From Parcubacteria group bacterium ADurb.Bin159 (GTDB lineage Bacteria; Patescibacteriota; Patescibacteriia; UBA2591; MWDC01), in contig MWDC01000001.1 of the NCBI GenBank assembly GCA_002070355.1, forward strand, positions 1,996 to 65,995: a DNA stretch of 64,000 bases, read 5' to 3'. Position numbers and translations under genes: made by a program. Positions 32,101 to 52,851 of this stretch are shown piece after piece. Positions within the stretch are counted from its first letter, which is position 1. The number at the start of each line of letters is the position of its first letter. The notes beneath the pieces were generated by a model. The model did not search any database. It was not told the DNA's origin and worked only from the letters and a program-made list of their open reading frames with translations.

Positions 32101-32398
32101 AAGGCCATTTAGAACTGCTCATTCCGGCAATATAAGTGCCGCTTTCTAATTTAGGATAATAGCCAAACTTATTCTTATAATCTTCTAAAAATTGGGCTAT
32201 AACTTGGATATCTCTTAATCTTTGCCAATCTCTCTGTATTTTTGCTTTGTCGTCTTGAGTAATTGAATAACCCCCTTCTGCTTGAACCGAAAGAATTTGT
32301 TTTACCACAAAAACGCCAATAACAAAAATAATTATACTTAATATAATCCCGATATACTTTTTTTGTTTTGAAAAATATTTAAACATAATGATTTTCAC
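29108..32398 (-). CDS. secreted/anchored cysteine-rich repeat protein (1096 aa) with possible pilin-like N-terminal region and three ~200-aa Cys-rich tandem repeats
   Basis: N-terminal hydrophobic anchor. The segment DIQVIAQFLEDYKNKFGYYP resembles the post-helix region of type IV pilins/pseudopilins (inference). Three repeats share CGxNxNGC..NNDCDFN..DSACWYNMCCGDDSGE..DRACCSSPTYCAHNGCQPT..VDVDGDGDKEYC..ACQCS..CCDGCRF. Confidence 0.5.
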   Translation of the reverse strand: MKIIMFKYFSKQKKYIGIILSIIIFVIGVFVVKQILSVQAEGGYSITQDDKAKIQRDWQRLRDIQVIAQFLEDYKNKFGYYPKLESGTYIAGMSSSKWPSWQETLGVALGKSLPVDPLNVFGAKQCASCPEDNPQCDGTCFNLKNKTYSVPDDSFIYLYRATINPLTKEVGGGYKLYAHFEYAQPENWKSNCYNYETEFECKKHFLCQWNGVCEPRPFEITPEPICFCEENFNCMCPTTAFNVEYKHSEAEFFGCLASQCLNPERQKCSDKDTCCLNEDSCVNWENKNYVCQESNWTLACGNGKINLNCGEVCDTKIQVANGTCHYDCSGIYCNPGYGNCDQNASNGCEINLNTDKNHCKYCEKACHSNEFCQNGECKGCGSNNSDNGCSPNFSYDCDFDPPTCSSLYGTRGYQWGNTFGNATGDCWSGKCCGDDSGEFPKTRICNSGACVSNPGDRACCSSTAYCAYNGCQSTGTIIDVDGDGDKEYCSNGKWYACQCSVKNDCCDGCHIIKDDFEPCGNGVCEYCYNGECKKVSSSYNSDMDPNDQCGTSGCLTGYCQNNTGICDYYTSGQHNCLLGYFCDSYGQCKGCGNNGNGCPGNPYNNDCDFNEDSCRYSNNYGWGCTYGNVDSACWYNMCCGDDSGEFYKTRVCDSSPYGSACSSDSTDRACCSSPTYCAHNGCQPTGKVDDVDGDGDKEFCSGGKWYACQCSVENDCCDGCRFRSDTTLCRPAAGDCDQEEYCSGSSASCPTDVFKPKFTKCNIGNTTGYFCDSYGQCRGCGDNKNGCSGDPYNNDCDFNKDSCQSSNYGWGYTYGNVDSACWYNMCCGDDSGEYYKTRTCNSGACSSDSTDRACCSSPTYCAHNGCQPTNTVVDVDDDGDKEYCRGGVWFACQCSEESACCDGCRFKSEGTICGYSSWNGCNGQCQKKRDVYKCSGTSSSCPTGPTNDKGDDVANVAANKVCSGGSEVDAPCRPAAGACDKEEYCSGSSASCPADAFKQKGDSCGVCKICDGLGPGSSSCNNANNCTVCGDGSGSRVCYQGSCIPKSELPLGNCPSGWNTCGGIATCGPKLGDDCCCKKCYPGSDCIERPTVCVSE

Positions 32399-32451: not shown

Positions 32452-35400
32452 TTATTCTTTATTGGTGTTAAACCTCCAATTTTTTATCAATTGCTCGTAA
32501 ATATCCAAAGTTTCTGGTTTGGCATTATCGCTATAAGAGAGTAAATAAATTAAACTTTCTATTTGTTGATTTTCTTTTCCCGGATTAATTACATTAAGGG
32601 CGCCAACATAAACTGTCCGTCCGCTTCTAATAGCCGGATAACCGTCGATTTTTAAAGATGTGTAACCTTCTGTTTCTTGAATAGGAATATTTTTCACAGT
32701 AGTTTTATACCACTCTTCCGGAGTTAAATAATCCGGATTTTCATATACTCGCAAACCAATAATGTCCTCATTTTCTAAATTAGAAAAAATCCATTCTTTT
32801 CTTAAATTCGAATCCTGGCTCGGGTTTGGAGAAAATCTTCTAAGTCCAGGTAAAACTGATTCCTTATATTCATCTAATCGAAACATTGTTTCATCAATAT
32901 AAAAATCGCTACCATTTTCTCCTGTATTGTTATAACCAATGCTTAACCCAATTTCATTTCTCAAATTACCTTGACTATCTAAAGTTTGAGTCATTCCCTC
33001 GGTATATTTAAATTTATAAGTAAACAAAGCCCAATCTTGATAATTTCCTTTTGGAATTATACCTAAGGATATGACTGGATAAGAAGATGTTTGATAAGGC
33101 CATTGCACAAATCTACATTTACAGCAAGAATCAGTACTATGACTTATCCGAGTTTCTAAATCTTTATTCAGATATTGACATTCTTGGCTGCATCGTCCTG
33201 CTTTTTGACAATAGTCTAAAGAAGAACTTTGTCCACACCAGCCGAGATTATAACATAATGTTAGACTGATATCTCCCGCCAAATGTCCTTTCCCATAAAA
33301 ACTAAAAATATAATCTTGTCCAGGAATTAAATTAAAAGGAGTAGTGTCATAAACAGCTCGCGCCCACATTGTTCGATTAGTATAGGGCCAAACTAAATCT
33401 TTAGATTCAGATACTTGACAGCTACCACAATTTGGATCATCGGCAAAATCACAAATTTTTTCAGTCCCTTTCCAGACACATTTATTAGCGTAAGGAAAAC
33501 TTAAAGGCCAAGAACCATTTTTTATTCCACTACAAATATCATTACGGCATTGACCAGGATAAGGCTCATTCGCATCTTGATGAATAAGTAAACTATTTTG
33601 TCCCGTATAAGACTCGATTGGATTTATACTTACATTAGAATGGCTTTGAAAACTCCTCTGCCATTGATTACTATTAAAGAGAAGAACTTTACCTATGTTT
33701 CCGCGACAATATTTGAGTTCAAAATTTGTTTCCGTATCTTCAAAGGACCAGGGCATTTCACAAAGATAATTTTCCACACTAGCATAATCAGAAACTGTCA
33801 CTTCTTTATTATTATTTACTTCAGCTTTAGCTATTACTTCGGTAAAGCCATTTTGATTTTGAGACATTATTTTTTGCGTAGAACCATCTTCATCTTTGTC
33901 ATCAGGAAGAGAAATAACTCCCGCATTAGTAAAACTCCATGTATAAGACCAGTTATAATTTTCTGTTCCTTCAATCTCTTGATCATCTTCTGAATAAGCA
34001 GTGGCTTGTAAACTTAAAGAAAGATTGGGTTTTTGAAAAAGAATATTTTTAGATGATTCTACTTTAATATAATCTGCATCAGATAATGAACCATCTATTA
34101 CTGAAATATTAATTTTAGATAATGCGCAAGGATCCTCAGCGGTTTTAAATTGCCAAACTTTGCCCGGAGACATTGCTAATTCGTATTTGCTTTTAACTCC
34201 TGTTGGCCCTCCTAAAATAATTACTTTATAAAAAGTGTTTAAAGATAGTCCCCATTGAGATTCGTTTGGTTTAATATAAATTGTAGTCTTATTATTTTTA
34301 GTTACCGATGAAAGCTTTGGCGATATTTCCTGCCAAATTATTTCATCCCATTGAATAATTGGCACAGTCGCTATTTTATAATCTTGTTTAGTAAAAGGAA
34401 AAGATTCTCTTTCTGATAATGTTCCTCCCCCATTTGAAGCCATTGTTCCCTTATAAAGTTTTATTGTTTCTTTATTCAAACTATTTGTCTCCATTGCTTG
34501 GTCAAAAGTGGCAGAAATAATAGTATTAGGGCAAACATTTTGCGAGTAATCAGCCGGACTAAATGTTTCCACTACCGGATGAGTGGCCACAATTAAAGGA
34601 GCACGGTCGGATTGACCCCCCTCTGTCTTTTCTACTTTAACATAAACTTCACCCAAACCTTTGCTGACAACTTTGGCTGTAGAAAGGGATTCTCCGGGTG
34701 TTCTTTCTTTAAAAGCAGCGATATTTTCCGGTGTTAACCAAGAATCTTTTTTTTCTAAACTCCATACCCAATCACTATAATCATCTGCTGATAAATAATT
34801 ACAATTAGATGAATAGACCTCTGTTTTATATGAAATTTCCTTTGGTTCGTCGGGGTAATATATCATACCTTTTCGAGGCGTTAAACAAACTTTATTCAAA
34901 GAACACTGTTTATCACCTGTTTTAAAGATCCAAACATAATCATCATCAGGAGAACCATCTTTTTTATTGTTTTTGTTTCCATCTAATGGCCAACCAAAAA
35001 TAGCGTCTCTTATCCCATTAGGACCACTTCTAAGAATAACTTGATAAATTGTGGAAGGATCAAGATTAATTTTGATTAAAAGTAGGGTCTCTTCATCATC
35101 TGTTTCTATATAACGATTGTTTATATCCCAAGAAACATTTTCCCATTTATTTTTACAATCATCTAATTTAGATTGATTACATTTTTCAATGATAACATTA
35201 GAGGAGTCAAGAGTAGTTTCCTCCATTTTATGATTAAATCTTACCCCGATTCGGCTATTAAGACAATTATCTGAAGAATCCGGCCAAGGTGAAGGAGATT
35301 GGCCCTTTAAATCACAAACATCACAATTTTTATTTTCTATAACCTGAGGAAGACCAGTGGGGCTTACCTTTAAATAAGCGCAAGTACGGTCTTTTTCCGG

Positions 35401-38400
35401 GCTGGCAATGCAACTTTTTTCTGAAGTTGAAGCCTTAATGAAGGTCTCCCCATAATATTTAGAAGTAGCTGTAGTAGAAAGTCCGTAAGGGGGTGATGAA
35501 ACACTGGCTACAGTATTATCTGTCGCCTCCCACGTAAAATCATCTACGCAAACCGGTTTGCCATCTGAATCTAAGGCTAAAGCAGCAAAAGAAAGAGTTT
35601 TATTAAGTCCTTTTATAATTACCGGACCGCGAGGGTAAACATTAATTTGAGCCACTTTACATGTTTTTGTTTTATCTGTGCTAACTTGAAAATTAACACT
35701 ATAACATTTTAAATCGTTATTCCAAGTACAAGGAATGGCATTGCTATTCTCAAAAGAAACGCCCTTATCGGATATAATTCCTTTTCCATTAGCACTGCTA
35801 ATAATTTCTACTTCGTATATTTGACCATCTATTAAAAGACAATTGCTCGGATAAAAAACAACTTTTGTTTTATCTCCTTCATTCCCCAAACTAATCCTGC
35901 CATTAAGATAACATCTTTTCTCCTTATCTTTATAAATTCCTTCCCCTTCTCCACAAGCATCAGCTTGTCTTGACACTTTAATATTATCTGTGGTTAAAGA
36001 ACCATAATTCATTAACTGATCAAAATTAATTTCAATGGAAGTATTCATCCCCACTTTTCCATCCTCTGTTGAGCAAGTTTTAATAGATTCAATTTGCGGT
36101 TTAGCCCAACAACATTTATTCTCATCTAAAAATCCACAACCCAGAGTTGCTCCGCACTGGCTATCTTTAGTGCAATCGCAACATAAACCTCGAGAAGGGC
36201 TATCGCAAGGAGCAATATTTTTTATGCAGTGTAATTTTCCGCATTGGTTATCATTATTACAACAACAACGACAATCTTCTTGGCTATTATTAGATAAACA
36301 AACGAAAGAACCTTGGCAAGTGTCCGCGCCCGCAGCGCAAACAGAAGAATTCTCTAATTTACAATTTTGCCCCGGTTTGCCAATGTCAATATTAATTTTA
36401 AAAGGAAGTTTATTACTCGGATTATTCCCCAGAGGAGAAACCCAAACCTTGCCTTGGCCAGCAGAAAGACCAAAAGGGACAACAGATTCTATCTTTTTAT
36501 CTCCCCAAGAACTCCCTTCACTCTCCTGAATCACTGATTTTATATCTTCAAAATTAATTTTCCCCGCGCTGCTGCCAAATGATTGGCCAAATAAATTAAC
36601 CGAATCATTAATTTTGCCTTGATTTGGTTCAACTTTAGAAAGGCAAGCTCCCATAGCCGTTCCTTCTATTGTCTTAAAACTTGTTAAAACATATTCTTTT
36701 TCTGGAATTTGGCAATGCCCTTCCTTTAAACAATTACCTTCACAATAATCCCAACCGCTTACACATTTATTACTATCAATTCGGCAACAAGGTGTTTTTT
36801 CTGGACAGTCATCATTAGTTTGACAGGCACCTAATCCTTTAATTACTCCACTTGTCTCTTGGCTAAAACCAGAATAAACTGTTTCTGTCCCTCTTTTAGC
36901 TCTTACTTTATAAGTATATGAATCTCCTTTTATAAATGTTCCGTTATTTTCAAAAATATAATCTCCTCCTTGTTTTATAAAAATAAAATTATTTGAAGGA
37001 TTAGGAGAACAAGTATTATCAATTAAAGAACAAGTGGTTAAAAGATTAAAATTTAATTGCTTTGATGTTCTTTCGTAAATTTCAAAAGCTGTGGCTAAAT
37101 TAGAAGGATCGTTATAATTCCATTTTAATTTTATTTGAGTCAAAGTTGAGGCTGGTATTGCCAAACCAGTCGGTTTAGGAAAAACCACACATTTATTCTC
37201 AAAACAAGTTTTCCCAATCATATTTTCCGGTGAAGTGTTTTCAGGAAAACAATCTTTATCTTCATTACAATCTCCACCAATAAACGGATCGTTTTCTTCG
37301 GTCAAGCAATCACTAAAATTAAAAGTACAATCAGAATTACACAATAAATTACCTCCAACATAATTATCATCAAAATCAACACAATTTTTTCCTCCTAAAT
37401 CATCGCCATCGCACTCTTCATTCTCATCTTTTGTCCCATCATAATTACAAGGAGATAAACCCTGACAAATACAAGTAGTTTCATCACAAACATTAGAAGC
37501 GCAAATATTATTATCAGCTTGACAGCCCTCTGTATTTTCATCCATATCACAATAAGCCCCCTGACAAAGTCCACAATCCGCTCCTCCACAATCAACTCCT
37601 CCTTCATCTTCATCAATAACTCCGTTAAAGCAATGTCCGGCTCTAATAAACGCTATTTTTTCTTTTTCGTCTAAATTATCAGCAAAATCATAAGCTTCTA
37701 TTTTAATTTTGTGCTGACTGCTAATTTCTAAAAGAGAAGTATCCCAATTATATTCATAATTATATTCTCCTGCTGCGGGTGTTCCGTTTTGAATATCTTC
37801 TATATCCCAAGTATTATCGCTGTTTAAATCAATTTTAAAAATAACTAAATTAATCCCTGCATCGTCGTAAATAGTTGTTTTAATTTTAATATTTCCGGAA
37901 GGTACATATTTACCTTGCGAAGGTTCAAAAACAACGCTCTTAATTTCCGGATTTTGAGTATCTACCATATTATTTGTTTTGAATGTCCACGAACAATTTC
38001 CATTATTACAATTAAGATTTTGTCCATTTTCACTAGTTACATTAGATGAAATAACTACTTTATATGAAGAATCGCCGTCAAAACAATGAAGAGTGGCATT
38101 ATCCGGACAAAATGCTTCGGGTGTAAATTTAACTTTTTTCCCTTCTGCTAATTGCTCTAAAGAACCGCTTACTATTGTCTCGTTTTCGTCTATTACTTTA
38201 CTAATAATAAAATTTGTGTTGTTTACGCTCTCTGTGTTTACGGTTTTATTAAAAATAGCGCTGACTATGGAATTTTTCGGCACAGTAACTCCTTTTAAAG
38301 GAGCAATATTTTTAATATAAAAAGGGCTTGGACCCGGCGGTGGCACGTCTTCACAATTAAGGCAACTATTGTCAAATTGCCAAATACCGTTAAGACAACG

Positions 38401-38844
38401 CAAGCAGCCTGAGCAAGTTCCCGAGATATCGCATTCTTTTCCTATAATTTCTTCGTTAGTTAAAATATCTTTTTCAATGGCTCTAATAATAAACCAAGAA
38501 ATAGAATAAGCCAAAACCACAATGATTAAACCAATCAAACCATTAATCATTAACTTTTTGGCTTTATCAATTTTTTCCTGATTGCCGCCGGAACTCATCC
38601 ATTGAAAGCCGCCGATGATGATAATAATTGTGGCTATTAAACCTAAAAACCCTAAAACCCATTTTATAATATTACCAATAACAGTTACTAAAGGCGTAGT
38701 GGGTAATTGTGAAGTGGTTAAAACTTCTTCCATTCCTTCGGTTAATTCTGCAGCAAAAACCGGACTAGTTATTCCTAAAACTGTTCCGATTATTATAAGG
38801 ATTAAAAAAATATTAAGGGTTTTGTTTTTGTTAAAAAACAACAT
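32452..38844 (-). CDS. giant surface protein (2130 aa): pilin-like (VirB2/TrbC-type) N-terminal module plus Cys-rich, bacterial Ig-like and beta-sandwich domains
   Basis: N-terminus has signal peptide, ELTEGMEEVLTTSQ, two TM helices (LVTVIGNIIKWVLGFLGLIATIIIIIGGF / LMINGLIGLIIVVLAYSISWFI), identical over ~125 aa to the 38930-41701 protein. Downstream are multiple Ig-like repeats and Cys-rich modules. Confidence 0.5.
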   Translation of the reverse strand: MLFFNKNKTLNIFLILIIIGTVLGITSPVFAAELTEGMEEVLTTSQLPTTPLVTVIGNIIKWVLGFLGLIATIIIIIGGFQWMSSGGNQEKIDKAKKLMINGLIGLIIVVLAYSISWFIIRAIEKDILTNEEIIGKECDISGTCSGCLRCLNGIWQFDNSCLNCEDVPPPGPSPFYIKNIAPLKGVTVPKNSIVSAIFNKTVNTESVNNTNFIISKVIDENETIVSGSLEQLAEGKKVKFTPEAFCPDNATLHCFDGDSSYKVVISSNVTSENGQNLNCNNGNCSWTFKTNNMVDTQNPEIKSVVFEPSQGKYVPSGNIKIKTTIYDDAGINLVIFKIDLNSDNTWDIEDIQNGTPAAGEYNYEYNWDTSLLEISSQHKIKIEAYDFADNLDEKEKIAFIRAGHCFNGVIDEDEGGVDCGGADCGLCQGAYCDMDENTEGCQADNNICASNVCDETTCICQGLSPCNYDGTKDENEECDGDDLGGKNCVDFDDNYVGGNLLCNSDCTFNFSDCLTEENDPFIGGDCNEDKDCFPENTSPENMIGKTCFENKCVVFPKPTGLAIPASTLTQIKLKWNYNDPSNLATAFEIYERTSKQLNFNLLTTCSLIDNTCSPNPSNNFIFIKQGGDYIFENNGTFIKGDSYTYKVRAKRGTETVYSGFSQETSGVIKGLGACQTNDDCPEKTPCCRIDSNKCVSGWDYCEGNCLKEGHCQIPEKEYVLTSFKTIEGTAMGACLSKVEPNQGKINDSVNLFGQSFGSSAGKINFEDIKSVIQESEGSSWGDKKIESVVPFGLSAGQGKVWVSPLGNNPSNKLPFKINIDIGKPGQNCKLENSSVCAAGADTCQGSFVCLSNNSQEDCRCCCNNDNQCGKLHCIKNIAPCDSPSRGLCCDCTKDSQCGATLGCGFLDENKCCWAKPQIESIKTCSTEDGKVGMNTSIEINFDQLMNYGSLTTDNIKVSRQADACGEGEGIYKDKEKRCYLNGRISLGNEGDKTKVVFYPSNCLLIDGQIYEVEIISSANGKGIISDKGVSFENSNAIPCTWNNDLKCYSVNFQVSTDKTKTCKVAQINVYPRGPVIIKGLNKTLSFAALALDSDGKPVCVDDFTWEATDNTVASVSSPPYGLSTTATSKYYGETFIKASTSEKSCIASPEKDRTCAYLKVSPTGLPQVIENKNCDVCDLKGQSPSPWPDSSDNCLNSRIGVRFNHKMEETTLDSSNVIIEKCNQSKLDDCKNKWENVSWDINNRYIETDDEETLLLIKINLDPSTIYQVILRSGPNGIRDAIFGWPLDGNKNNKKDGSPDDDYVWIFKTGDKQCSLNKVCLTPRKGMIYYPDEPKEISYKTEVYSSNCNYLSADDYSDWVWSLEKKDSWLTPENIAAFKERTPGESLSTAKVVSKGLGEVYVKVEKTEGGQSDRAPLIVATHPVVETFSPADYSQNVCPNTIISATFDQAMETNSLNKETIKLYKGTMASNGGGTLSERESFPFTKQDYKIATVPIIQWDEIIWQEISPKLSSVTKNNKTTIYIKPNESQWGLSLNTFYKVIILGGPTGVKSKYELAMSPGKVWQFKTAEDPCALSKINISVIDGSLSDADYIKVESSKNILFQKPNLSLSLQATAYSEDDQEIEGTENYNWSYTWSFTNAGVISLPDDKDEDGSTQKIMSQNQNGFTEVIAKAEVNNNKEVTVSDYASVENYLCEMPWSFEDTETNFELKYCRGNIGKVLLFNSNQWQRSFQSHSNVSINPIESYTGQNSLLIHQDANEPYPGQCRNDICSGIKNGSWPLSFPYANKCVWKGTEKICDFADDPNCGSCQVSESKDLVWPYTNRTMWARAVYDTTPFNLIPGQDYIFSFYGKGHLAGDISLTLCYNLGWCGQSSSLDYCQKAGRCSQECQYLNKDLETRISHSTDSCCKCRFVQWPYQTSSYPVISLGIIPKGNYQDWALFTYKFKYTEGMTQTLDSQGNLRNEIGLSIGYNNTGENGSDFYIDETMFRLDEYKESVLPGLRRFSPNPSQDSNLRKEWIFSNLENEDIIGLRVYENPDYLTPEEWYKTTVKNIPIQETEGYTSLKIDGYPAIRSGRTVYVGALNVINPGKENQQIESLIYLLSYSDNAKPETLDIYEQLIKNWRFNTNKE

Positions 38845-38929: not shown

Positions 38930-41701
38930 TTATAAGTAATTCTTGTAATCCTGCAAAATTTGTTCCGCCGTGCGAGCGTAATCATAAATTTTAACTTCAT
39001 CGATGAGACCCTTGAACTCTTCTCTTCCGCTTGCCGCACGTCTACCGATTGCAATTGTATGATTAGCATCTGAAAACACTGGGATGCTTGAAGCATATGA
39101 GCCAGAACCAACTCGAGTTCCATTTACGTATATAGTATAACTAGTAGGCGTGACTACATATACAATATAATACCAAGTATTAAGTTGATAACGAAAAGGG
39201 GCATCTGCCCTAATAGTAATCCAATCTGTTCCATATTTAATCTCACCATTTCCATATCCAATATCACCATGTATAGCAGTTCCATACTGAAACTTTATAT
39301 CAAAACCATAGTAATTGGGACTTCTTGTGCCAATAATACAGCGAATATTAGTATCTTTAACCATTGCCCACGCTCCCACTGTAAAACTACCTATTATAGT
39401 AGGATTTCCGCAATTTACATAATCGTCTACTCCGTCAAAACTTAAACATTTTCCTGATTTGCACATATCTTCGGATTGCCAAGTAGCACCATAAATCTTG
39501 CCATCGTTATTATTGACGCTGTCGTCATAAGCAGTACTTCCATGTCCCTCATCAAACCGCCAATAAGCCACTGGCGGCAGCGACAGTCCGGCAGTTATTT
39601 GACCCTGAACTGCCGGCGTTATTTTTATATTATCTTTTAACCCCTTTACATCCGACGGGATTCGTATAACTATATTATTTTCCGGAGAATAATTTTTAGG
39701 GCATTCTTCTTCAGACAAACAAACAGAAGGGTCATCTTTTGAAGGACAACAGCGATTTATTTCTTGCCAAGAAAGAATATTATTGCTTAATATTCCCTGC
39801 CAAACATCAGTGCCGTTAGTATTAGTTAAAAATTCTATTTTCCCTTTTTCTGCAGCTAATTTACATCCTCCATTTATATAATCCCAAAAAAAATTTTGGG
39901 ATTGCTTGTCGCTTTCACATTTCCCGTCAGGGCAACATCCTAAATTATAGCCATGAATAGTAACACATTGGCCAATTGCACCCGAAGGTGGGTCGATCCA
40001 ATCAATATAAGGATTTCCTTTATTAATTTGCCCGCTTGTCTTAAATGACCAGCGATAATAAGACGCTTCCATACTATTGCCATAAATATCTCTTACTCCA
40101 AAAGCAAAATCAGGATCCAAATTACAAGTTTCTCCTTTTTTTTCTCCACCATAAATTGTAGCTTGATAATTAGTTTCTGCGTCTAAAATAGCATAAGGTT
40201 TATAAATAGCTCCCTTTTCTGAAATTGTTATTTCTCGAGCTAACATTGAAGAAAGAATAAAAACATCCTCATTAATAGAGGTTGGGTCAATGGCTTCATT
40301 AAAATTAGCCATCACATCACTCATCCGGTCAATATCTTTTTCTTGATTCGCTGGTGAAGTAGAAATAATTTCCGGACCAGTTAGATCAAACTCTTCATTC
40401 GTTTGAAACGTCCAAGAGCATTTTCCATTTCCGCAATCTAAATCCATACAATTTGTTCCTTTAAGTCCGGTTATTTCTACTTTAATGGTACTATTAGCCG
40501 GAAAACAATGACAAGCAGCCGCCTCTCCGGGACAAAGGTCAGTCGGCCTAAACATAAAACTTTTATCTGTTAACCGTTCAAAATATCCTGGCACTCCATC
40601 TTCACCTATTTTTACTTTTATAGTAGCATCATTTAAGCTGTTTGTTGACCAAGATTGGCATTCCTGCCCTTCTGCGCAATTTGGATTATAAACAATCAAA
40701 GTATTAATATCTATAGGTTTAGTAAAAGTAACGGCAATGCCAGCGTTTCTCGCCACAGTATTACCTTCTAAAGGCAAAGCGCTTTCTATTTGGGGCGCTA
40801 CATTATCTATAAAATTTCCCACAGTAAAAGTCCACACAATATCTTGACCTAAAGTGTTTCCCCCAGATCGGGTGCCTAAAATTCCTTCTTTTCCGCTTTT
40901 TAACATTATACGATAGCTCCCGGGATTAAAACAACCGCAACAGCTGTTATTCTTAAAAATAAAATTACAATCTTTATTTCCATCTTCTTTAATTTCACAT
41001 TGAGAAAGAAGATTCTCACAAGTTCCTTTAGGAATAAAAATAAAACTATTCCCTTTAACTATAATAGACCCTTCTATATTAGTGCTATTGCCTCCTTCTA
41101 TTTTTTGAACATAAACTGTCGGATTAGAGCAATTTTCTTTGTCTAATCTAAAACTATCAGCATTAAGTTTTTGATTAAAACTAACTATTACTTTAGTATT
41201 TTGTGCCACCGTTTCTCCGGCTTTTGGCGACCGAGAAGTTATGACTAAATAATTGGCTCCTCTGAGCTGATAATGGTTCCCCGGTCCCTCTTCGCCCCAT
41301 CCCCCTCCTTCTTCTCCTGGACCGATATTTTCTTCAATGGCTCTAATGATAAACCAAGAAATAGAATAAGCCAAAACCACAATGATTAAACCAATCAAAC
41401 CATTAATCATTAACTTTTTGGCTTTATCAATTTTTTCCTGATTGCCGCCGGAACTCATCCATTGAAAGCCGCCAATGATGATAATAATTGTGGCTATCAA
41501 ACCTAAAAACCCTAAAACCCATTTTATGACATTGCCAATAACAGTTACTAAAGGCGTAGTGGGTAATTGTGAAGTGGTCAAAACTTCTTCCATTCCTTCG
41601 GTTAATTCTACAGCAAAAATGGGGCTAGCCATTCCTAAAATTGCCCCGATTATCATCACGATTAAAAAAATATTAAGAATTTTGTTTTTATTAAAAAACA
41701 T
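38930..41701 (-). CDS. large surface protein (923 aa): same pilin-like N-terminal module, Ig-like (Big_5-type) repeats and a C-terminal LamG/concanavalin-A-like domain
   Basis: The N-terminal 125 aa are a near copy of the 32452-38844 N-terminus (about 95% identical at DNA level, 41318-41701 vs 38460-38844). The C-terminus (VAYWRFDEGHG...GLIDEVKIYDYARTAEQILQDY) matches the LamG repeats of the 48-52 kb genes. Confidence 0.5.
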   Translation of the reverse strand: MFFNKNKILNIFLIVMIIGAILGMASPIFAVELTEGMEEVLTTSQLPTTPLVTVIGNVIKWVLGFLGLIATIIIIIGGFQWMSSGGNQEKIDKAKKLMINGLIGLIIVVLAYSISWFIIRAIEENIGPGEEGGGWGEEGPGNHYQLRGANYLVITSRSPKAGETVAQNTKVIVSFNQKLNADSFRLDKENCSNPTVYVQKIEGGNSTNIEGSIIVKGNSFIFIPKGTCENLLSQCEIKEDGNKDCNFIFKNNSCCGCFNPGSYRIMLKSGKEGILGTRSGGNTLGQDIVWTFTVGNFIDNVAPQIESALPLEGNTVARNAGIAVTFTKPIDINTLIVYNPNCAEGQECQSWSTNSLNDATIKVKIGEDGVPGYFERLTDKSFMFRPTDLCPGEAAACHCFPANSTIKVEITGLKGTNCMDLDCGNGKCSWTFQTNEEFDLTGPEIISTSPANQEKDIDRMSDVMANFNEAIDPTSINEDVFILSSMLAREITISEKGAIYKPYAILDAETNYQATIYGGEKKGETCNLDPDFAFGVRDIYGNSMEASYYRWSFKTSGQINKGNPYIDWIDPPSGAIGQCVTIHGYNLGCCPDGKCESDKQSQNFFWDYINGGCKLAAEKGKIEFLTNTNGTDVWQGILSNNILSWQEINRCCPSKDDPSVCLSEEECPKNYSPENNIVIRIPSDVKGLKDNIKITPAVQGQITAGLSLPPVAYWRFDEGHGSTAYDDSVNNNDGKIYGATWQSEDMCKSGKCLSFDGVDDYVNCGNPTIIGSFTVGAWAMVKDTNIRCIIGTRSPNYYGFDIKFQYGTAIHGDIGYGNGEIKYGTDWITIRADAPFRYQLNTWYYIVYVVTPTSYTIYVNGTRVGSGSYASSIPVFSDANHTIAIGRRAASGREEFKGLIDEVKIYDYARTAEQILQDYKNYL

Positions 41702-45248: not shown

Positions 45249-46508
45249 TTAAAAATATTTCTTTAATACTTTAGGTATGCCAAACCCTCCATCTTTTTTT
45301 TGATAATTTTCTAGAATAGCAATAATAATTCTGCCCAAAGCAAAAGCTGTGCCATTAACTGTATGAACAAATCTTAAATCTCCATTTTTATCCCGAAAAC
45401 GAATATTTAATCTCTCTGCTTGAAAATCCGTGCAATTAGAAGTAGAATGCGTCTCTCGATATTTTTTTTCCGACGGTATCCAGGTTTCTATATCAAATTT
45501 CGCTGCTGCTGGGTCGCCTAAATCCGCTGTACACGTCTCTATTACTTGATAAGGCAAACTCAATTTTTGCACCATCTCTTCTTCTAACGCCAAAAATAAT
45601 TGGTGTTCTTTATTTGAGTTTTGCGGTTGACAAAAACTAAACATTTCCAATTTGTCAAATTGATGAACCCGCAAAATTCCCTTTGTATCTTTACCATAAG
45701 AGCCCGCTTCCCGACGAAAACAGGAAGAATAACCTACATAACGAAAAGGCATTTTTTTTTCTTCTAAAATTTCATCTTTATGCATCGGACCAATGGATTG
45801 CTCAGCCGTACCCACTAAACACATTTTATCTTTTTCTATCCAATAAATTTCTTCTCTCCCCCGCTCTACATATCCCATACCTTTCATAATCTTTTCCTGT
45901 AAAAGAACTGGGGGCAAAATTGGTATAAATGGGGTAGATAATAAATTTAATTTTTTATTTTTAATAATTTTTTCTAAATTTTTTTTATCTGACAAAAAAT
46001 CTAAAACAAAGCGAATAAGAGCGAATTGTAAACGCACTAAATCGCCTTTCAAAAAAGCAAATCTTGTGCCGGAAATTTTTGCCGCCCGTTCTGTATCAAT
46101 ATTCTCTTCTCCTATTTCTAAATAATTTTTTGGTGTAAAAGAAAAATTTTTTATCTTCCCCACTTTTCTTAAAATACGATTATCTTTTTCTGATTTACCT
46201 CGAGGCACGCTTTCTAAAGGCAAATTGGGTACTAAAGATAATATCTCTTCTATTTCTTTTTCTATTTTTTTTAATTTATTTTCCCAATCAATCCTTTCTT
46301 TTTTTAATTCCTGCAATTGATAAATCTCTTTTTCTTTTGGTTTGCCACTAATTTTATTTTGCTTCGCCCTTATCTCTTCTATTTTGGGTAAAATCTCTTT
46401 TCTCTGTTTATCTAACTCAATCAATTTATCAATATCCACTTTTACCCCTTTGGCTTCCAGCCCATTTTTTACTTTATCTATATTTTGTAAAATAAATTTT
46501 AGGTTCAT
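45249..46508 (-). CDS. serS: serine--tRNA ligase
   Basis: N-terminal coiled-coil arm plus class II core motifs ([20 protein letters not shown]); 419 aa. Confidence 0.85.
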
Positions 46509-47968
46509 AATTTTGGTCTCATTAACGGAAATAAAATTACTTCTCTGATGCTATGCTGATTGGTTAAAATCTGACACAATCTATCAATGCCGATACCCTC
46601 ACCAGCCGTAGGCGGAAGTCCGTATTCGAGAGCTGATATAAAATCCTCATCCATAGGATGTGCTTCTTCGTCTCCCTCTTTTCTGGCTATTACTTGCGCC
46701 TTAAACCTTTCTTCTTGGTCTATAGGGTCGTTTAATTCCGAGAAAGCATTACAAATTTCCATTCCAGAAATTAATAATTGAAATCGCTCCACATAATTCG
46801 GATTATCCGCTTTTTTCTTTGCTAAAGGAGAAAGCTCCAAAGGATGATCAATAATAAAACAGGGCTGAATTATCTGGGGACGAGCTAATTCTTTCCATAT
46901 TTCATCTAAAATTTTTCCTTTAGACCAATTTTTCTCCACGGCTAATTCTTTTTTCTTGGCAACAATAAATAATTCTTCTTTTGTTTTAATTTTTTCCATA
47001 TCAATATCAGCGAATTTAATTAAAGCGTCTCTAAAAGTTAATCTCTGGTAAGGTTTTTTAAAATTGATTTTATTTTTTTCATATTCTAATTCCAAAGAAC
47101 CGCAAACTTTTAAAACAATTTTTTCCATTAGATCTTCAGTTAAATCCATTAAATCATTATAATCGCTGTATGCCTCATAAAATTCCACTTGGGTAAATTC
47201 TGGATTATGGGCAAAATCAATACCCTCATTGCGAAAACAGCGGGCTATTTCATAAACTTTAGGGAAACCGCCCACTACTAATCGCTTCAAATACAACTCC
47301 GGGGCAATACGCAAATAAAGGTCAATGTCCAAAGCATTAAGATGAGTAATAAACGGCCGAGCTGCTGCGCCTCCTGCCACTCCCTGCAATATTGGCGTCT
47401 CTACTTCTAAAAATCCACGCTTATCTAAAAAATCCCGCAATTCTTGAATAATCAACGCCCGTGTTTCAAAAATTTTTCTTGCTTCTGCATTAGCCATTAA
47501 ATCCAAATAGCGCTGTCGATACCTTGTTTCTTTATCTTTCAACCCATGCCATTTTTCCGGCAAAGGCAAAAGAGCTTTGGTTAAAATCCGCCATTCTTTT
47601 ATCCGTAAAGTTTTTTCTTGCTTATGGGTTTTAAAAAGCTCTCCTTTTATTTCTATAAAATCGCCAATATCAATGTACTCCTTAAAAAAATTATATTTTT
47701 CCTTGCCCACACTATCTTCAGATAAATAACCCTGAATTACAGCCGTGCCATCAGTTAAATCTAAAAAACAGGCCTTTCCGTGAAGACGTATGGCTAAAAT
47801 ACGACCGGCTAAAATAATTTCTTTACTCAATAATTCATCAAATTTCTCTTGTGCTTTTTTACAATTATGGGTTATTTTTGTTTTTGCTGGATACGGGTCA
47901 ATACCCATTTCTCTAAGCTTTTTTAATTTTTCTCGTCTAAATTTTTCCTCTCCTGTTTTAATTTCCAT
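46505..47968 (-). CDS. lysS: lysine--tRNA ligase, class II
   Basis: OB-fold N-terminal domain and class II motifs ([24 protein letters not shown]); 487 aa; start overlaps serS stop. Confidence 0.85.
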
Positions 47969-48201
47969 AAATACTAAAAATTTAATTCCTTTTTAATTCC
48001 TTTTATTTTACTCCTTTTTTACAAAAAAACAAGGGCTATACAGCCCCAACAAAAAATCCAAATTCTCCCTACCTTGTCTGCTCTACTTACCGGCAAGCAG
48101 GCAACAGACAAGAAATAAGCATGAATTTATTCAAAATTAAAAATTTATTCGAAATTTTCTTCGAAGCTCTTACTAAGAATGGAATTCTAAATTTTTATAT
48201 T

Positions 48202-51200
48202 TTAAATTCCAATTCTTATTGCTCCGCTATTGTAATCCTCTAAAATTTGTTCCGGCGTACGAGCGTAGTTATAGATACGGACATCATCGATAAGACCATT
48301 AAAGTACGAATAATTTCCCCCTATTTTTTCTCCTATATGTAGAGGACCGGTACCGTTTTGATCATTAGCAAAACCACTACTTCCTGTTACTGAGTTATCA
48401 AATTTGCCATCAATAAAAAGTTTAATACCTACATCTCTGTCAAAAATCCCAGTAATATGATGCCAGGTATTATCTAAAACTTCCGGCTTACTACTCTCAA
48501 CTATTGTTTGTAACCCACTAGCTGGAGAAAACGAGATTTGTAATTTTCTAGTCGTGGATGCTTGACGAATCCACCAATAATTCCCATTATCAGATCCATA
48601 ACCATATTGTTTCCAAATAATACCCGCATAACCATCTCCAGAAATAGGAAGAGAAGCTTTAATCCAAAGAGCAACAGTTAAATCATGTGTTCTTGCATTC
48701 AAACTATCATTATGTGGCATCCTTACATAATCATCAACTCCATCAAATTGCAGGGCGGAGTTAAGTTTGCCGACGGTCCAAATAGGACCGTCAGTGCCAT
48801 AACCTGTACCGTCATTATTATTATCTGAATCATCATACAAAGTTTGGCCTGAGGCATTGCCCGAAGTATATTCATCAAATCGCCACTGAGCTACCGGTTT
48901 GCCGTGATTATAATCCCAAGCAATCTGCGCCGGCGTCCGCGCGTAATCAAAAATCTGCACGTGGTCAATAAGACCATTAAAAAATTGAGAACCGGAAGTT
49001 CTTTTATCTCCCCCAATTCTATGAACAGTAGTAAAATTTATGTCGCTACCGCTAGTAGTCGCCATAGTATATTGAATACCATCAACATATCCATAAATTT
49101 TTCCTGCTGATTTATCTCTAACAAAAGCTAAATGGTGCCATTTATTGTCATTTAATTGAATGTTAATATAAGCATCAATTTGACCGTTATTCCAATAAAA
49201 ACGCGGTTTTGCAGGACCCGCTAATTCCCAATTTGAATTAGGAGAATCATTATAATTACCCAATATAACACCAACCCTATCTGTAACATCAGACGGAACC
49301 TTAATCCATGCCTCAACAGTGTTACTAACCAAACCAATATTAAGAATATTTGAAAATTCTACATAATCATTACTCCCATCAAATTCTAGGGCACTGCCAA
49401 TTTTGCCCGGGGAATACCAAGTAGGTTTATAATCAAGAGTGCCCCCACCCAAAGTCCCTCTATTATTATTGCCCGATTTATCATTAGCATAATCCCCTAC
49501 TTGCTCATTAAAATCCCAAAGAGCTATAGGTGGATTGCCGCCAAAACCGCCATCATCCCAAGTAGAAGCCGCGTTTTTCGTTGTGCCCATTACTACTGCC
49601 CTGCCTTGATTATACTCCATTTTTATCTCCTCCTCGCTTAAAGCGTAGTTATAAATTTTAACTTCATCAATGAGACCCTTAAAAACTCTGTTCATAACGC
49701 CCTTGCCAATATTAAATGCCGTATCATAATCTGAATTAGTGGCAGTACTTTGAGATTTTAAAACTCCATCTAAATAAGCTTTAGATATACCCGAATCAAC
49801 AACCCCAACCAAATAATGCCACTTATTGTCTTCTATCGATCCGAAATATGCTCTATCACTCCAATGCCCTGAATGGAAAAAATAATTATCGGCAGATCCA
49901 TCTTTACTGAAAGAATAAGAGGGCTCATAATATGGCTCTGGATTATTAACCTTCCCTTTCCAGAGTATTCCAGCCCAATCTGGAGATCCTCCCGAAGTTT
50001 TGATCCAAGCTGATATGGTAAAATTTCCACTTCCAAATTTAAAGTTATTAATACCCCCGCAATTTACATAATCATCTGCTCCGTCAAAACTCAATGCTTT
50101 GCCGAATTTACCGTTATTGGTCCAAGCAGCACCGGTGATAGTGCCATTATTGCCAAAACCACTGGAGTCGTAGACCGTGGTGCCATAGCCCTCATCAAAT
50201 TTCCAATAGCCAACCGGAGATTTTTGAGCCGGCCGGCTGGCATTCATATCCTCCAAAATTTGCTTCTGCGTGCGAGCGTAATTATATATGCGAATATCAT
50301 CAATAAGACCAGAAAAAAATTCGCCTGCCGCAAATCCTCCTCCCACACTATCTTGGTCAACTCCTATCACTAAAGAACCATTTGCCGTTATAGAACCACC
50401 CGAAGCAAGTGTTCCTGAATAAGATAATTTACCATCTTTATATAATTTTGTTGCCCCGTCTGTCCCATTCCACGTTACAGCAATAAAATGCCATTTATTA
50501 TCATTTATAGATACACCAGTAGTCACATTAGATGTTACGGTATAAATCTGTATATTAGCGCTATTAAAAATTAACCAATTATTATCAGAAGCTGTTGAAG
50601 CGTAAGAAATAATACCATCGTTAGAATCAGATGTTTTTATCCAAAATGTTGTTGTTATGGCCGATTTTGGAAAATTAGAAATTGGATTTTTAATCACATA
50701 ATCATCTACTCCGTCAAAGGAGCAAGCAGTTCCATATTTGCCGGGTTTGGTGCAATCCATACCCATAGCATTGGCTCCATAATGGGTAGTACCATTATTG
50801 CCATTGCCGGAAATATCATAAATTGTTTTATTGTCTCCAGCGACTCTTTCGTCCATTTTCCAGTAGCCGACTGGTGGAGGCCCCCATTCGTAAAGAGCGC
50901 GGATTTCGCGATTATTAAGCGCGCGATTATATATGCGGACATCATCAATAAGACCATTAAAAGAATAACTTCCACCATGAAAATCGCCTATTCTAAAAAC
51001 TCCATTAGTAGTTGTTGAATTTCTATAACCAGCTGTTCCTTTTTCTACTCCATCAATAAACAATTTTGCATAATTATTCGCATAATCATTAACAACAACA
51101 AAATGATGCCAATTAGCATCAGGATAACCATTATAAAAAGGATTATTTTCTGAATCTCCTGTATTCCAATTAATTTTTCCGCCAGTAAAATATATATTGG

Positions 51201-51462
51201 GACCTGAGCTGTAGTTGTCTCCATCTAATGAAAGAGGAATTTTACCATTATAAGCCGAACTTTTTAACCAAGCCGATAATGTAATAGTATTGCCTATATT
51301 AAAATTGCTAATATTTACATAATCTCCACTACCATCGAAAGTACCGCCGTTGCCAAATTTGCCGGCAACAGGGAGGGCATTACCCGCGGCTGTGCCGTGA
51401 TTATTGTTACCCGAGGAATCTTTAACTTCACCGGAAGTACCATTCCAAGAGGCTTCGTCCAT
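48202..51462 (-). CDS. secreted protein with five tandem LamG/concanavalin-A-like lectin domains (annotated start probably not the true N-terminus)
   Basis: Five repeats each begin P(V/I)(G/A)YW(K/R)(F/M)DE and end GLIDDVRIYNYARTPEQILEDYN or a variant. There is no signal peptide at the annotated Met. The frame continues upstream through a single TAA into ORF 51484-52278. Confidence 0.6.
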   Translation of the reverse strand: MDEASWNGTSGEVKDSSGNNNHGTAAGNALPVAGKFGNGGTFDGSGDYVNISNFNIGNTITLSAWLKSSAYNGKIPLSLDGDNYSSGPNIYFTGGKINWNTGDSENNPFYNGYPDANWHHFVVVNDYANNYAKLFIDGVEKGTAGYRNSTTTNGVFRIGDFHGGSYSFNGLIDDVRIYNRALNNREIRALYEWGPPPVGYWKMDERVAGDNKTIYDISGNGNNGTTHYGANAMGMDCTKPGKYGTACSFDGVDDYVIKNPISNFPKSAITTTFWIKTSDSNDGIISYASTASDNNWLIFNSANIQIYTVTSNVTTGVSINDNKWHFIAVTWNGTDGATKLYKDGKLSYSGTLASGGSITANGSLVIGVDQDSVGGGFAAGEFFSGLIDDIRIYNYARTQKQILEDMNASRPAQKSPVGYWKFDEGYGTTVYDSSGFGNNGTITGAAWTNNGKFGKALSFDGADDYVNCGGINNFKFGSGNFTISAWIKTSGGSPDWAGILWKGKVNNPEPYYEPSYSFSKDGSADNYFFHSGHWSDRAYFGSIEDNKWHYLVGVVDSGISKAYLDGVLKSQSTATNSDYDTAFNIGKGVMNRVFKGLIDEVKIYNYALSEEEIKMEYNQGRAVVMGTTKNAASTWDDGGFGGNPPIALWDFNEQVGDYANDKSGNNNRGTLGGGTLDYKPTWYSPGKIGSALEFDGSNDYVEFSNILNIGLVSNTVEAWIKVPSDVTDRVGVILGNYNDSPNSNWELAGPAKPRFYWNNGQIDAYINIQLNDNKWHHLAFVRDKSAGKIYGYVDGIQYTMATTSGSDINFTTVHRIGGDKRTSGSQFFNGLIDHVQIFDYARTPAQIAWDYNHGKPVAQWRFDEYTSGNASGQTLYDDSDNNNDGTGYGTDGPIWTVGKLNSALQFDGVDDYVRMPHNDSLNARTHDLTVALWIKASLPISGDGYAGIIWKQYGYGSDNGNYWWIRQASTTRKLQISFSPASGLQTIVESSKPEVLDNTWHHITGIFDRDVGIKLFIDGKFDNSVTGSSGFANDQNGTGPLHIGEKIGGNYSYFNGLIDDVRIYNYARTPEQILEDYNSGAIRIGI

Positions 51463-51483
51463 TTTCCAATAGCCGACTAATCC

Positions 51484-52278
51484 TTAGTTCAAATTATAAA
51501 CTTCAGATGGCGAAGAAACTTTTATGGCTGAACCTTTGGGCCCACCGCCCAAGTAATCCGCCTTGATTTGTTCCGGCGTACGAACGTAGTTATATATGCG
51601 GATATCATCTAAATAACCCAAAAAAGGATAAGAACTACTATAATAACCTAGATCAGCACCGGTCATAGCAGTAGATTGAAACCCAGTATAAGAAGCGCTA
51701 CCTTTTTCTAAACCATTAACATATAATTTTTGGCTACTGGCAGTTAAAACAGCAGTAATATAATACCATTGATTCTCGTCAGAAAAACCATAAGCGTTAA
51801 CATGTCTTTGTGTGCCTCCACTATCACTCCAGGAAAGACGGAACCTGTCGTCACTATGATGATAAGCTAAATACAAATATTGTCCTTTGGAAGTAAAAAA
51901 TATGGGGTAATTTGAGGCAGGAGCTAGCCCGGGTTTAACCCACATAGAGATGGTAAATGCTTGCAAGTTGGGTATTATTGTGCTTGATACAGAAACTTTA
52001 TCTCCCCCCCCATTAAACCGCAAGCATTTTCCTGATTTGCACATATCTTCAGATTGCCAAGTAGCGCCATAAATCGTGCCGTCGTTATTATTGGTACTGT
52101 CGTCATAAGCAGTTCCTCCATATCCCTCATCAAATCGCCAATAAGCCACTGGCGGTTCGCCGGCAGCAGGCGTGGCAAAAACACCGGCAAAATAAAGGAT
52201 TAAAAAAACACCGCCAATTACAGCCAATAAAACGGCGGTGAAAATTAAATAAGGAGATTTGGGATTAAATTTAGACAT
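51484..52278 (-). CDS. membrane-anchored LamG-domain protein (N-terminal TM plus one LamG domain); possibly the N-terminal part of a single larger gene with 48202-51462
   Basis: TM (YLIFTAVLLAVIGGVFLILYFAGVF), then VAYWRFDEGYGGTAYDDSTNNNDGTIYGATWQSEDMCKSGKCL...GYLDDIRIYNYVRTPEQIKADY. Confidence 0.55.
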   Translation of the reverse strand: MSKFNPKSPYLIFTAVLLAVIGGVFLILYFAGVFATPAAGEPPVAYWRFDEGYGGTAYDDSTNNNDGTIYGATWQSEDMCKSGKCLRFNGGGDKVSVSSTIIPNLQAFTISMWVKPGLAPASNYPIFFTSKGQYLYLAYHHSDDRFRLSWSDSGGTQRHVNAYGFSDENQWYYITAVLTASSQKLYVNGLEKGSASYTGFQSTAMTGADLGYYSSSYPFLGYLDDIRIYNYVRTPEQIKADYLGGGPKGSAIKVSSPSEVYNLN

Positions 52279-52395
52279 AAAAAAATGTTAAATATTAAAT
52301 GCCAAAATCGGAAATTTTCTTCAAAACTCTTGCTAAGAGTAGAATTCTAAATTTTATATTTTATATTCTATTATAATTATACTCTTTCAATTTTG

Positions 52396-52851
52396 TCAGT
52401 CAACGGAAATGATGTGGATTTTTGTTTCGCCTTTGGGAGTATTAAAAGTGAAACTATCGCCTTTTTTATGATCCATTAAGGCTTGACCTAAAGGAGATTT
52501 ATAAGAGATAGCGCCGCTAAAAGCGTCAACTTCTTCTTGGCTGACAATAGAAAAATTTTGTTCTAAATTATTTATAGTGATTTTAACTTTTGAGCCAATA
52601 TTAATTCTCCCGTTATTTTTATCGGTTTCAATAATAATGGAGCTTTTTAAAATATTTTCCAAACGAATAATTTCCGCTTCGGTTTGTTCGCGTTCTTCTT
52701 TAGCGGAATGATATTCAGCATTTTCGCTTAAATCGCCTAACTCTTTAGCTCGTTGAATGGCTTCGGCGATTTCCGGCCGACGAACTTCTTTTAGATATTT
52801 AAGCCGCTCTTGTATCTTGTTTTTCCCTTCTGGGGTTAAAAGAGAATCCAT
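52396..52851 (-). CDS. greA: transcription elongation factor GreA
   Basis: N-terminal coiled coil (LTPEGKNKIQERLKYLK...GDLSENAEYHSAKEE) and C-terminal FKBP-like domain; 151 aa. Confidence 0.85.
   Translation of the reverse strand: MDSLLTPEGKNKIQERLKYLKEVRRPEIAEAIQRAKELGDLSENAEYHSAKEEREQTEAEIIRLENILKSSIIIETDKNNGRINIGSKVKITINNLEQNFSIVSQEEVDAFSGAISYKSPLGQALMDHKKGDSFTFNTPKGETKIHIISVD

Follow-up and report, generated by a model that had tools for sequence, protein, structure and literature searches.

Two neighbouring open reading frames (ORFs) on the minus strand of a 64,000-nt stretch of DNA from Parcubacteria group bacterium ADurb.Bin159 (contig MWDC01000001.1; the whole stretch is referred to here as the window) raise the question of whether they represent two genes for LamG-domain proteins or one gene cut in two. 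The ORFs at 51484-52278 (264 aa) and 48202-51462 (1086 aa) lie in one common frame, and the single-frame translation of 48202-52338 (minus) reads MSKF...VYNLN*GLVGYWKMDEASWNG...RIGI*, with one internal stop only. A first-pass annotation, made from the sequence by itself, had named the TAA at 51484-51486 as the sole interruption of this frame, and both our translation and the ORF list agree with it. Our analysis indicates that window 48202-52278 (minus) is one gene, predicted to encode a surface protein of 1358 aa that is anchored at its N-terminus and carries six LamG/concanavalin-A-like domains. The TAA within it is most probably a young and private C>T nonsense allele, in which the codon for Gln265 (CAA) has become TAA.

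The junction and codon 265 in conspecific contigs

On the coding strand the junction reads AAC TAA GGA TTA GTC GGC TAT TGG AAA ATG GAC GAA, which in translation gives ...SSPSEVYNLN*GLVGYWKMDEASWNGTSGEV..., and the stop is positioned in a linker, three residues ahead of the first strand of domain 2. The first-pass annotation described seven codons, G-L-V-G-Y-W-K, leading from the stop into the annotated methionine of the 1086-aa ORF; these can be read directly in the DNA, with the ATG at 51462. It further held that the seven codons restore a conserved start seen in every other repeat. The motif is indeed present at the junction, while the starts of the six repeats proved to be alike and not identical. 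The length given for the fused product (~1351 aa) is corrected here to 1358 aa.

The LysS protein of the window shares 100% identity with one from "Parcubacteria group bacterium ADurb.Bin159", an anaerobic-digester metagenome-assembled genome that belongs to the Patescibacteria (Candidate Phyla Radiation, CPR). A literature search on ADurb.Bin159 found nothing, and exact-sequence look-ups of the 264-aa ORF, the 1086-aa ORF and LeuS gave no match on record. Exact look-up of the LysS and GreA proteins retrieved 19 conspecific contigs from JGI, ENA and Logan assemblies, most of which are >99% identical to the window. The samples that these contigs (L121-L139) come from include JGI 3300010346, 3300010347 and 3300009669, ENA ERZ27249271-81 and ERZ795025, and SRA SRR21285878, SRR21285879 and SRR12762322. 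Codon 265 is covered by five of them, each from a different sample: L121 (JGI 3300010346), L131 (ENA ERZ27249272), L132 (SRR21285879), L133 (SRR21285878) and L136 (ENA ERZ27249281). In all five the codon is CAA (Gln) and the frame is open through the junction, and in L121 a single gene of 1358 aa is called between greA and lysS. Because all five carry C at window 51486, the difference in the window is best described as a private C>T transition. The change appears to be very recent, since L136, whose haplotype is nearest to that of the window, shows only 3 differences over 3.9 kb and the downstream 1086 codons of the window contain no second lesion. A recent nonsense mutation had been the first option offered for the TAA, and the uniform CAA of the conspecific contigs supports it. 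An exact 26-mer taken 3' of the stop gave 0 matches in a scan of metagenome contigs, though JGI contigs bearing that sequence were obtained by another route.

Domain architecture and distant homologues

Pfam places one Laminin_G_3 domain (PF13385) in the 264-aa ORF (residues 89-239, E=1.3e-26, 94 bits) and five PF13385 stretches in the 1086-aa ORF (E=1.6e-123, 408.6 bits), and both ORFs exceed the gathering cut-off of 27.6 for this family. At the DNA level, six copies of an 80-nt repeat lie in register at a spacing of 633-702 nt, the sixth being inside the upstream 264-aa ORF. The repeat units of the fused product start at residues 42, 266, 468, 687, 916 and 1127, and their starts read PPVAYWRFDE, GLVGYWKMDE, PPVGYWKMDE, SPVGYWKFDE, PPIALWDFNE and KPVAQWRFDE. 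A hydrophobic segment is present at the N-terminus of the 264-aa ORF (Table 1). In the 1086-aa ORF the Kyte-Doolittle maximum is 0.54 within the first 80 residues and 1.02 overall, in agreement with the earlier statement that this protein has no signal peptide of its own. The description of the fusion as a transmembrane (TM)-anchored array of six LamG domains likewise holds, given the one plus five Pfam assignments and the hydrophobic N-terminal segment. In the conspecific contigs and the homologues the anchor is carried on the same polypeptide as the array; in the window the TAA parts it from units 2-6. Such an anchor-plus-array layout would fit an exposed binding protein. Surface proteins of the LamG/concanavalin type are abundant in CPR bacteria. 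They have been proposed to act as cell-attachment factors (PMC11310336, PMC12911398).

A homologue search with the fused sequence returned >2000 matches. Every match with a named source comes from Patescibacteria. Each of the best 120 is one uninterrupted polypeptide, 1350-2300 aa long, and shares 30-40% identity with the query over ~97-99% of its length. A subset has the same layout as the fused product, namely a short N-terminus, a TM helix and then PVAYWKFDE (P0091, 1377 aa; P0098, 1378 aa), and further single-polypeptide homologues of this layout are P0044, P0053, P0089, P0112, P0031 and P0087. None of the listed homologue matches has a split architecture like that of the window. In a MAFFT alignment the stop of the window falls on a D/E column and is followed by the conserved GLVGYWKMDEASW. 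As the alignment puts the stop directly before the conserved motif, the start methionine of the 1086-aa ORF equates to the methionine of that motif.

The codon ahead of the motif was also surveyed with back-translated GLVGYWKMDE, using one genome per species. It is a sense codon in all of at least 123 instances, at no fewer than 120 loci, and a stop was never seen among the matches listed. The encoded residue, among the same matches, is N in 38 cases, D in 34, E in 13 and Q in 10, with others besides, and CAA occurs 7 times. The window has TAA where the family has a sense codon before GLVGYWKMDE, and its copy is a disrupted family member. Comparison of the stop position with orthologues had been suggested as a check on the earlier annotation; the position is a sense codon in the conspecifics, in the distant homologues and in the motif instances, and nothing points to a stop that recurs or is conserved at the position of codon 265 in this family. 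The alignment and the motif survey also uphold the claim that the annotated start of the 1086-aa ORF lies inside a domain. Judged from sequence, this 'start' is a by-product of the conserved methionine in GLVGYWKMDE and not an evolved start codon.

The fused product resembles the multi-LamG giants of the Patescibacteria/CPR (PF13385, often with DUF2341; P0091, P0098, P0044, P0053, P0089 and P0112) in its N-terminal TM anchor, with the same hydrophobic arrangement ahead of PVAYWKFDE in these six homologues. It is also like them in its tandem LamG units of ~200-230 aa, in the inter-domain [D/N/E/Q]-GLVGYWKMDE and in total length. It differs from them in that overall identity stays at 30-40% and in that the listed homologues are uninterrupted whereas the window copy is interrupted by a stop. 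LamG unit 1 of the window is a further point of difference, being without a close relative (best 31%). A search with the 264-aa ORF alone produced weak matches only, at ≤31% identity, and the ORF therefore appears to have no close orthologue outside the species. Many genome records with Patescibacteria-style LS[DN]GLVGYWKMDE motifs (L001-L120) are titled 'uncultured Gammaproteobacteria bacterium' or 'Pseudomonadales'. Mislabelling of bins could account for these titles, as could a wide spread of the motif across phyla.

Predicted consequence and rival explanations of the stop

The two ORFs look like one transcription unit, because a promoter-like site precedes the 264-aa ORF but has no counterpart ahead of the 1086-aa ORF, which is the only one of the two to be followed by a terminator-like hairpin (Table 1). 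A search for an internal promoter of the 1086-aa ORF gave only weak 9/12 matches that were no better than background. Translation of the window allele would end at residue 264 and leave a stub that has the anchor and a single LamG domain. The five domains beyond the stop would either remain unmade or be made by re-initiation at a fortuitous in-frame ATG 21 nt further on. A re-initiated product would begin inside a β-strand, would lack an export signal and would stay in the cytoplasm. The six-domain surface array would be lost with or without re-initiation.

Several observations weigh against a genuine nonsense allele with these consequences. The TAA allele appears in no independent assembly and is a singleton beside the CAA of the five other conspecific contigs. 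No other contig with the exact haplotype of the window covers the site, L137 ending 106 nt before it. Only L121 spans the whole gene, and it carries a scrambled stretch of 40 residues, so that the fully intact allele has to be pieced together from partial contigs; merging contigs of the same sample for an intact allele (L133 with L124, L131 with L126) gave no overlap and left gaps of 58 and 86 nt at window ~49936-50191. What is said above of re-initiation on the downstream ORF and of the fate of its product is inference only. In addition, the difference is a single base in a gene that is otherwise essentially identical to that of the other contigs, and metagenome bins are population consensus sequences. 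The TAA could accordingly be an error that arose in sequencing, assembly or consensus calling, or the assembler may have chosen a rare minority allele; the real gene would then be intact and carry CAA. We consider this unlikely. Substitution errors seldom survive into an Illumina consensus, and C>T is the natural mutation type expected in a genome of 32% GC. Independent assemblies moreover carry genuine-looking knockouts of the same gene, located mid-contig or seen in more than one sample (W546*, a G9 frameshift and absence of the gene, described below), and a real knockout in the window is for this reason unsurprising.

The remaining alternatives accept the stop as real. Programmed readthrough or recoding, by which the full 1358-aa protein would still be made, was among the options of the first-pass annotation. 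The shared frame and the perfectly intact downstream ORF are in keeping with it, and a tRNA-Gln(UUG) gene in the window encodes a tRNA that is near-cognate to UAA, whose misreading would restore the wild-type Gln at a trace level. We nevertheless give readthrough almost no credence, because TAA is the main stop of the window, G follows it, no structure lies downstream and the stop is unconserved. The 45 long ORFs of the window (GC 32.4%) end with TAA in 32 cases, TGA in 9 and TAG in 4; the earlier annotation had pointed to leuS as a gene ending in TAA, which is correct, and a genome-wide reassignment of TAA is ruled out by this usage. In E. coli, a G directly after UAA makes for strong and efficient termination. 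The predicted fold of the 111 nt that surround and follow the stop is no more stable than those of shuffled sequence (z = +0.73), no Rfam element was found near the TAA, and the stop is absent from the conspecific contigs, the aligned homologues and the surveyed motif instances. Known cases of programmed readthrough or reassignment (e.g. UGA=Gly in Gracilibacteria and Absconditabacteria) are comparable in that an in-frame stop lies within a CPR domain array; they differ in that the stop here is the commonest of the window, is not conserved in relatives and lacks a stimulatory context. A functional split is also quite improbable. It would consist of an anchored one-domain stub and a five-domain protein started at the ATG at 51462 by termination-reinitiation coupling. 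The in-frame ATG lies at a distance from the stop that is within the re-initiation range of bacterial ribosomes, and an AAGGA overlaps the stop codon. This AAGGA, however, is 18 nt from the ATG and thus beyond normal Shine-Dalgarno spacing, and the ATG is the conserved domain-motif methionine and no new feature. The product would start in the first β-strand without a signal peptide or TM segment, trapping a lectin-like array in the cytoplasm, and the same split is lacking among the listed homologues. A private nonsense allele in one gene is consequently the reading that we prefer.

Variation of the LamG gene among conspecific strains

In conspecific contigs the same gene carries several lesions other than the TAA of the window. 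In L136 a TGG>TAG change (W546*, window 50642) affects the conserved Trp of unit 3 in mid-contig. In L122 a TAT>TAG change (Y788*) is less reliable, lying 32 nt from the contig end; the L122 variants are 32 and 171 nt from that end, where many assemblies break. Assemblies were observed to break inside the LamG gene at window ~49935-50192, where L122, L124 and L126 start and L131, L132 and L133 end. The breaks point to a repeat or a strain-variable stretch, which Y788* and Y835N of L122 adjoin. The whole 4315-bp LamG segment is missing from L123 and L135. The remaining variation in the gene across the 19 contigs comprises 2 synonymous and 1 missense single-nucleotide variants (SNVs) only.

A further kind of lesion concerns a G8 homopolymer (Table 1), which is the only G/C run of ≥8 in the 64-kb, 32% GC window. 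The tract is G8 in the window, L131, L132, L133, L136 and L137 and G9 in L121, L138 and L139. In L138 and L139 the G9 frameshift truncates the protein at 93 aa. In L121 the G9 (~L121 686, window 52012) is accompanied by a -1 deletion 118 nt upstream (~L121 567, window 52130), which restores the frame and yields an ORF of 1358 aa but scrambles residues 50-89 of LamG unit 1. Compensation of this type hints at selection to restore the frame, and the deletion may reflect either such selection or an assembly chimera. The G9 contigs share single-nucleotide polymorphisms at 52361, 52326 and 52234; because they share a haplotype, G9 may be one event and not repeated switching. The G8/G9 tract itself may be a slippage or contingency tract. 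Poly-G contingency tracts are known from surface genes of Campylobacter, Neisseria and Haemophilus. The LamG gene resembles such homopolymer contingency loci in having a G8 tract in a surface-protein ORF and a G8/G9 polymorphism that switches the frame off; it differs in that its TAA is a point substitution and not slippage, and in that its G9 contigs are of one haplotype. Phase variation, which the earlier annotation had listed as one possibility for the TAA, therefore does not apply to this point substitution, yet the homopolymer elsewhere in the gene is polymorphic.

The LamG gene is flanked by leuS-greA upstream and lysS-serS downstream, and in the contigs with an empty site the terminator and lysS come immediately after greA (junction at L123 5016 and L135 4779). 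In relatives whose LysS is 64-65% identical, the greA-lysS interval also lacks a LamG gene; greA and lysS are directly adjacent in L140 and separated by one small ORF in L141. The absence of the gene from these relatives argues that it is an accessory insertion at the greA/lysS site. The leader of the gene is one copy of a ~90-nt direct repeat (Table 1), the second copy of which holds an ATG at the position equivalent to that in copy 1. The repeat may be a remnant of a tandem gene array or of an insertion event. Origin of the gene-less variant by recombination between the two repeats was ruled out, since both copies lie inside the missing segment. A short stretch is duplicated at the right-hand junction of the cassette, which reads GGTAAGTAGAGCAGACAAGGTAGGGAGAATTTGG in the window as against GGTAAGTAGATTTGG at the empty site. 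The conspecific contigs diverge from the window by 0.087% in the LamG gene, 0% in lysS, ~1% in greA and leuS and 0.46% downstream of serS. These values suggest that window 46505-52278 is a recently spread haplotype block, in a comparison that is biased because the contigs were chosen by exact LysS/GreA identity.

The number of knockouts in so few contigs permits an addition to the preferred explanation. The private TAA could, tentatively, be one of several independently selected knockouts of a surface protein that is costly or dangerous (a phage receptor, for instance, or an adhesin for an absent host), and the gene would then act as an on/off contingency locus in the population. Three nonsense SNVs (the window TAA, W546* and Y788*) stand beside 2 synonymous and 1 missense, and random SNVs in this coding sequence (CDS) would be nonsense in 3.7-4.7% of cases, so that P(≥3 of 6) is ~1-2e-3, a post hoc value. 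The frameshift from G8 to G9 in three samples, the compensating -1 deletion of L121, the absence of the gene in two samples, its status as an accessory insertion lacking in L140 and L141 and the attachment role proposed for LamG/concanavalin proteins of CPR bacteria (PMC11310336, PMC12911398) all agree with selection. On the other side, the numbers are small and the window TAA prompted the look at this gene; P rises to ~0.016 without that allele (2/5) and to ~0.12 when L122, with its variants near a contig end, is also left out (1/3). The G9 contigs may count as a single event, and knockouts would also be expected if selection on a dispensable accessory gene were simply relaxed. The nonsense excess is thus suggestive only, and the gene looks like one for a dispensable or counter-selected accessory surface protein. 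A wider and more doubtful proposal is that the candidate adhesin gene, in a population of episymbiont-type Parcubacteria, forms a hot spot where selected inactivation recurs and is partly reversed, i.e. a contingency-type on/off surface locus of which the window TAA would be one 'off' state. Equally doubtful as a whole is its detailed form, in which 2-3 nonsense mutations of separate origin, slippage in the poly-G tract together with a compensating frameshift, and gain or loss of the whole cassette would have accumulated on a recently swept, low-diversity haplotype, perhaps driven by the dynamics of phage or a host partner.

Table 1 Features of the LamG gene and its surroundings in the window (Patescibacteria, contig MWDC01000001.1)
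Feature	Window position	Strand	Remarks
Promoter-like site TTGACT-16-TATAAT, 11/12	52376..52403	-	Consensus match only; just past greA, upstream of LamG gene
4315-bp segment (promoter, leader, whole LamG gene, second repeat copy)	48076..52390	-	Absent from L123, L135
Leader of gene, copy 1 of ~90-nt direct repeat	52275..52368	-	Up to 89% identity over 45-nt core
5' part of gene, codons 1-264 (N-terminal anchor, LamG unit 1, inter-domain linker)	51487..52278	-	Annotated as 264-aa ORF
Hydrophobic N-terminal segment, residues ~10-34, LIFTAVLLAVIGGVFLILYFAGVFA	52177..52251	-	Kyte-Doolittle 19-residue mean 2.71; putative signal-anchor or signal peptide
G8 homopolymer, codons GGG GGG GGA (C8 on + strand)	52004..52011	-	Inside LamG unit 1; G9 in three conspecific contigs
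Interrupting TAA, codon 265	51484..51486	-	CAA (Gln) in conspecific contigs; C>T on coding strand at window 51486 (G>A on + strand)
Seven codons GLVGYWK, stop to annotated ATG	51463..51483	-	Start of conserved first strand, LamG unit 2
3' part of gene, LamG units 2-6, annotated 1086-aa ORF	48202..51462	-	Pfam; first Met is conserved M of GLVGYWKMDE; no hydrophobic N-terminus
Copy 2 of leader-like direct repeat	48115..48209	-	Overlaps last two sense codons and stop, continues downstream
Terminator-like hairpin GGGGCTGTATAGCCCT, then T run	48032..48047	-	Between LamG gene and lysS; kept in contigs without the gene

Some further features of the window deserve mention. An 11-nt indel, AAAAGGAATTA, in the lysS leader (window 47994-48004; L129 position 529) is the unit of a short tandem duplication and is polymorphic among conspecifics. 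The window also contains a bacterial RNase P RNA. Two giant proteins of 2130 and 923 aa are encoded at 32452-38844 and 38930-41701 (minus), each with a T4SS_pilin/TrbC-VirB2 domain at its N-terminus and Big_5 Ig-like domains after it, and the 923-aa protein also has a C-terminal LamG domain. By their predicted domains both resemble surface proteins fused to a pilin. Next to them, the 1096-aa ORF at 29108-32398 gave only a weak disintegrin-like match.

Taken by itself, the event is ordinary and occurs in a known class of protein; it is not a signal of recoding. It is like ordinary nonsense pseudogenes, or segregating loss-of-function alleles, of bacterial surface-protein and adhesin genes in its one-base change from sense to stop relative to conspecifics, in its intact downstream frame and in the presence or absence of the accessory gene among strains. 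The case stands out only in how many distinct knockouts of the gene occur in just 19 contigs. With respect to annotation, the two CDSs should be treated as one disrupted gene (a pseudogene or loss-of-function allele) in place of two hypothetical proteins, and the 1086-aa ORF has a false start. With respect to method, in-frame ORF pairs in CPR genomes need a check against conspecific contigs before claims of recoding are made; in the present case one base decided the matter.

The one point that merits follow-up is that a candidate CPR adhesin shows a cluster of independent knockouts, by nonsense mutation, by poly-G frameshift and by deletion of the whole gene. Among near-identical strains from anaerobic digesters this large LamG surface protein is present, absent or variously knocked out, which suggests that the protein is dispensable or conditionally harmful. 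This variable state of the gene provides a testable handle on the role of the surface arrays that are so abundant in CPR bacteria.

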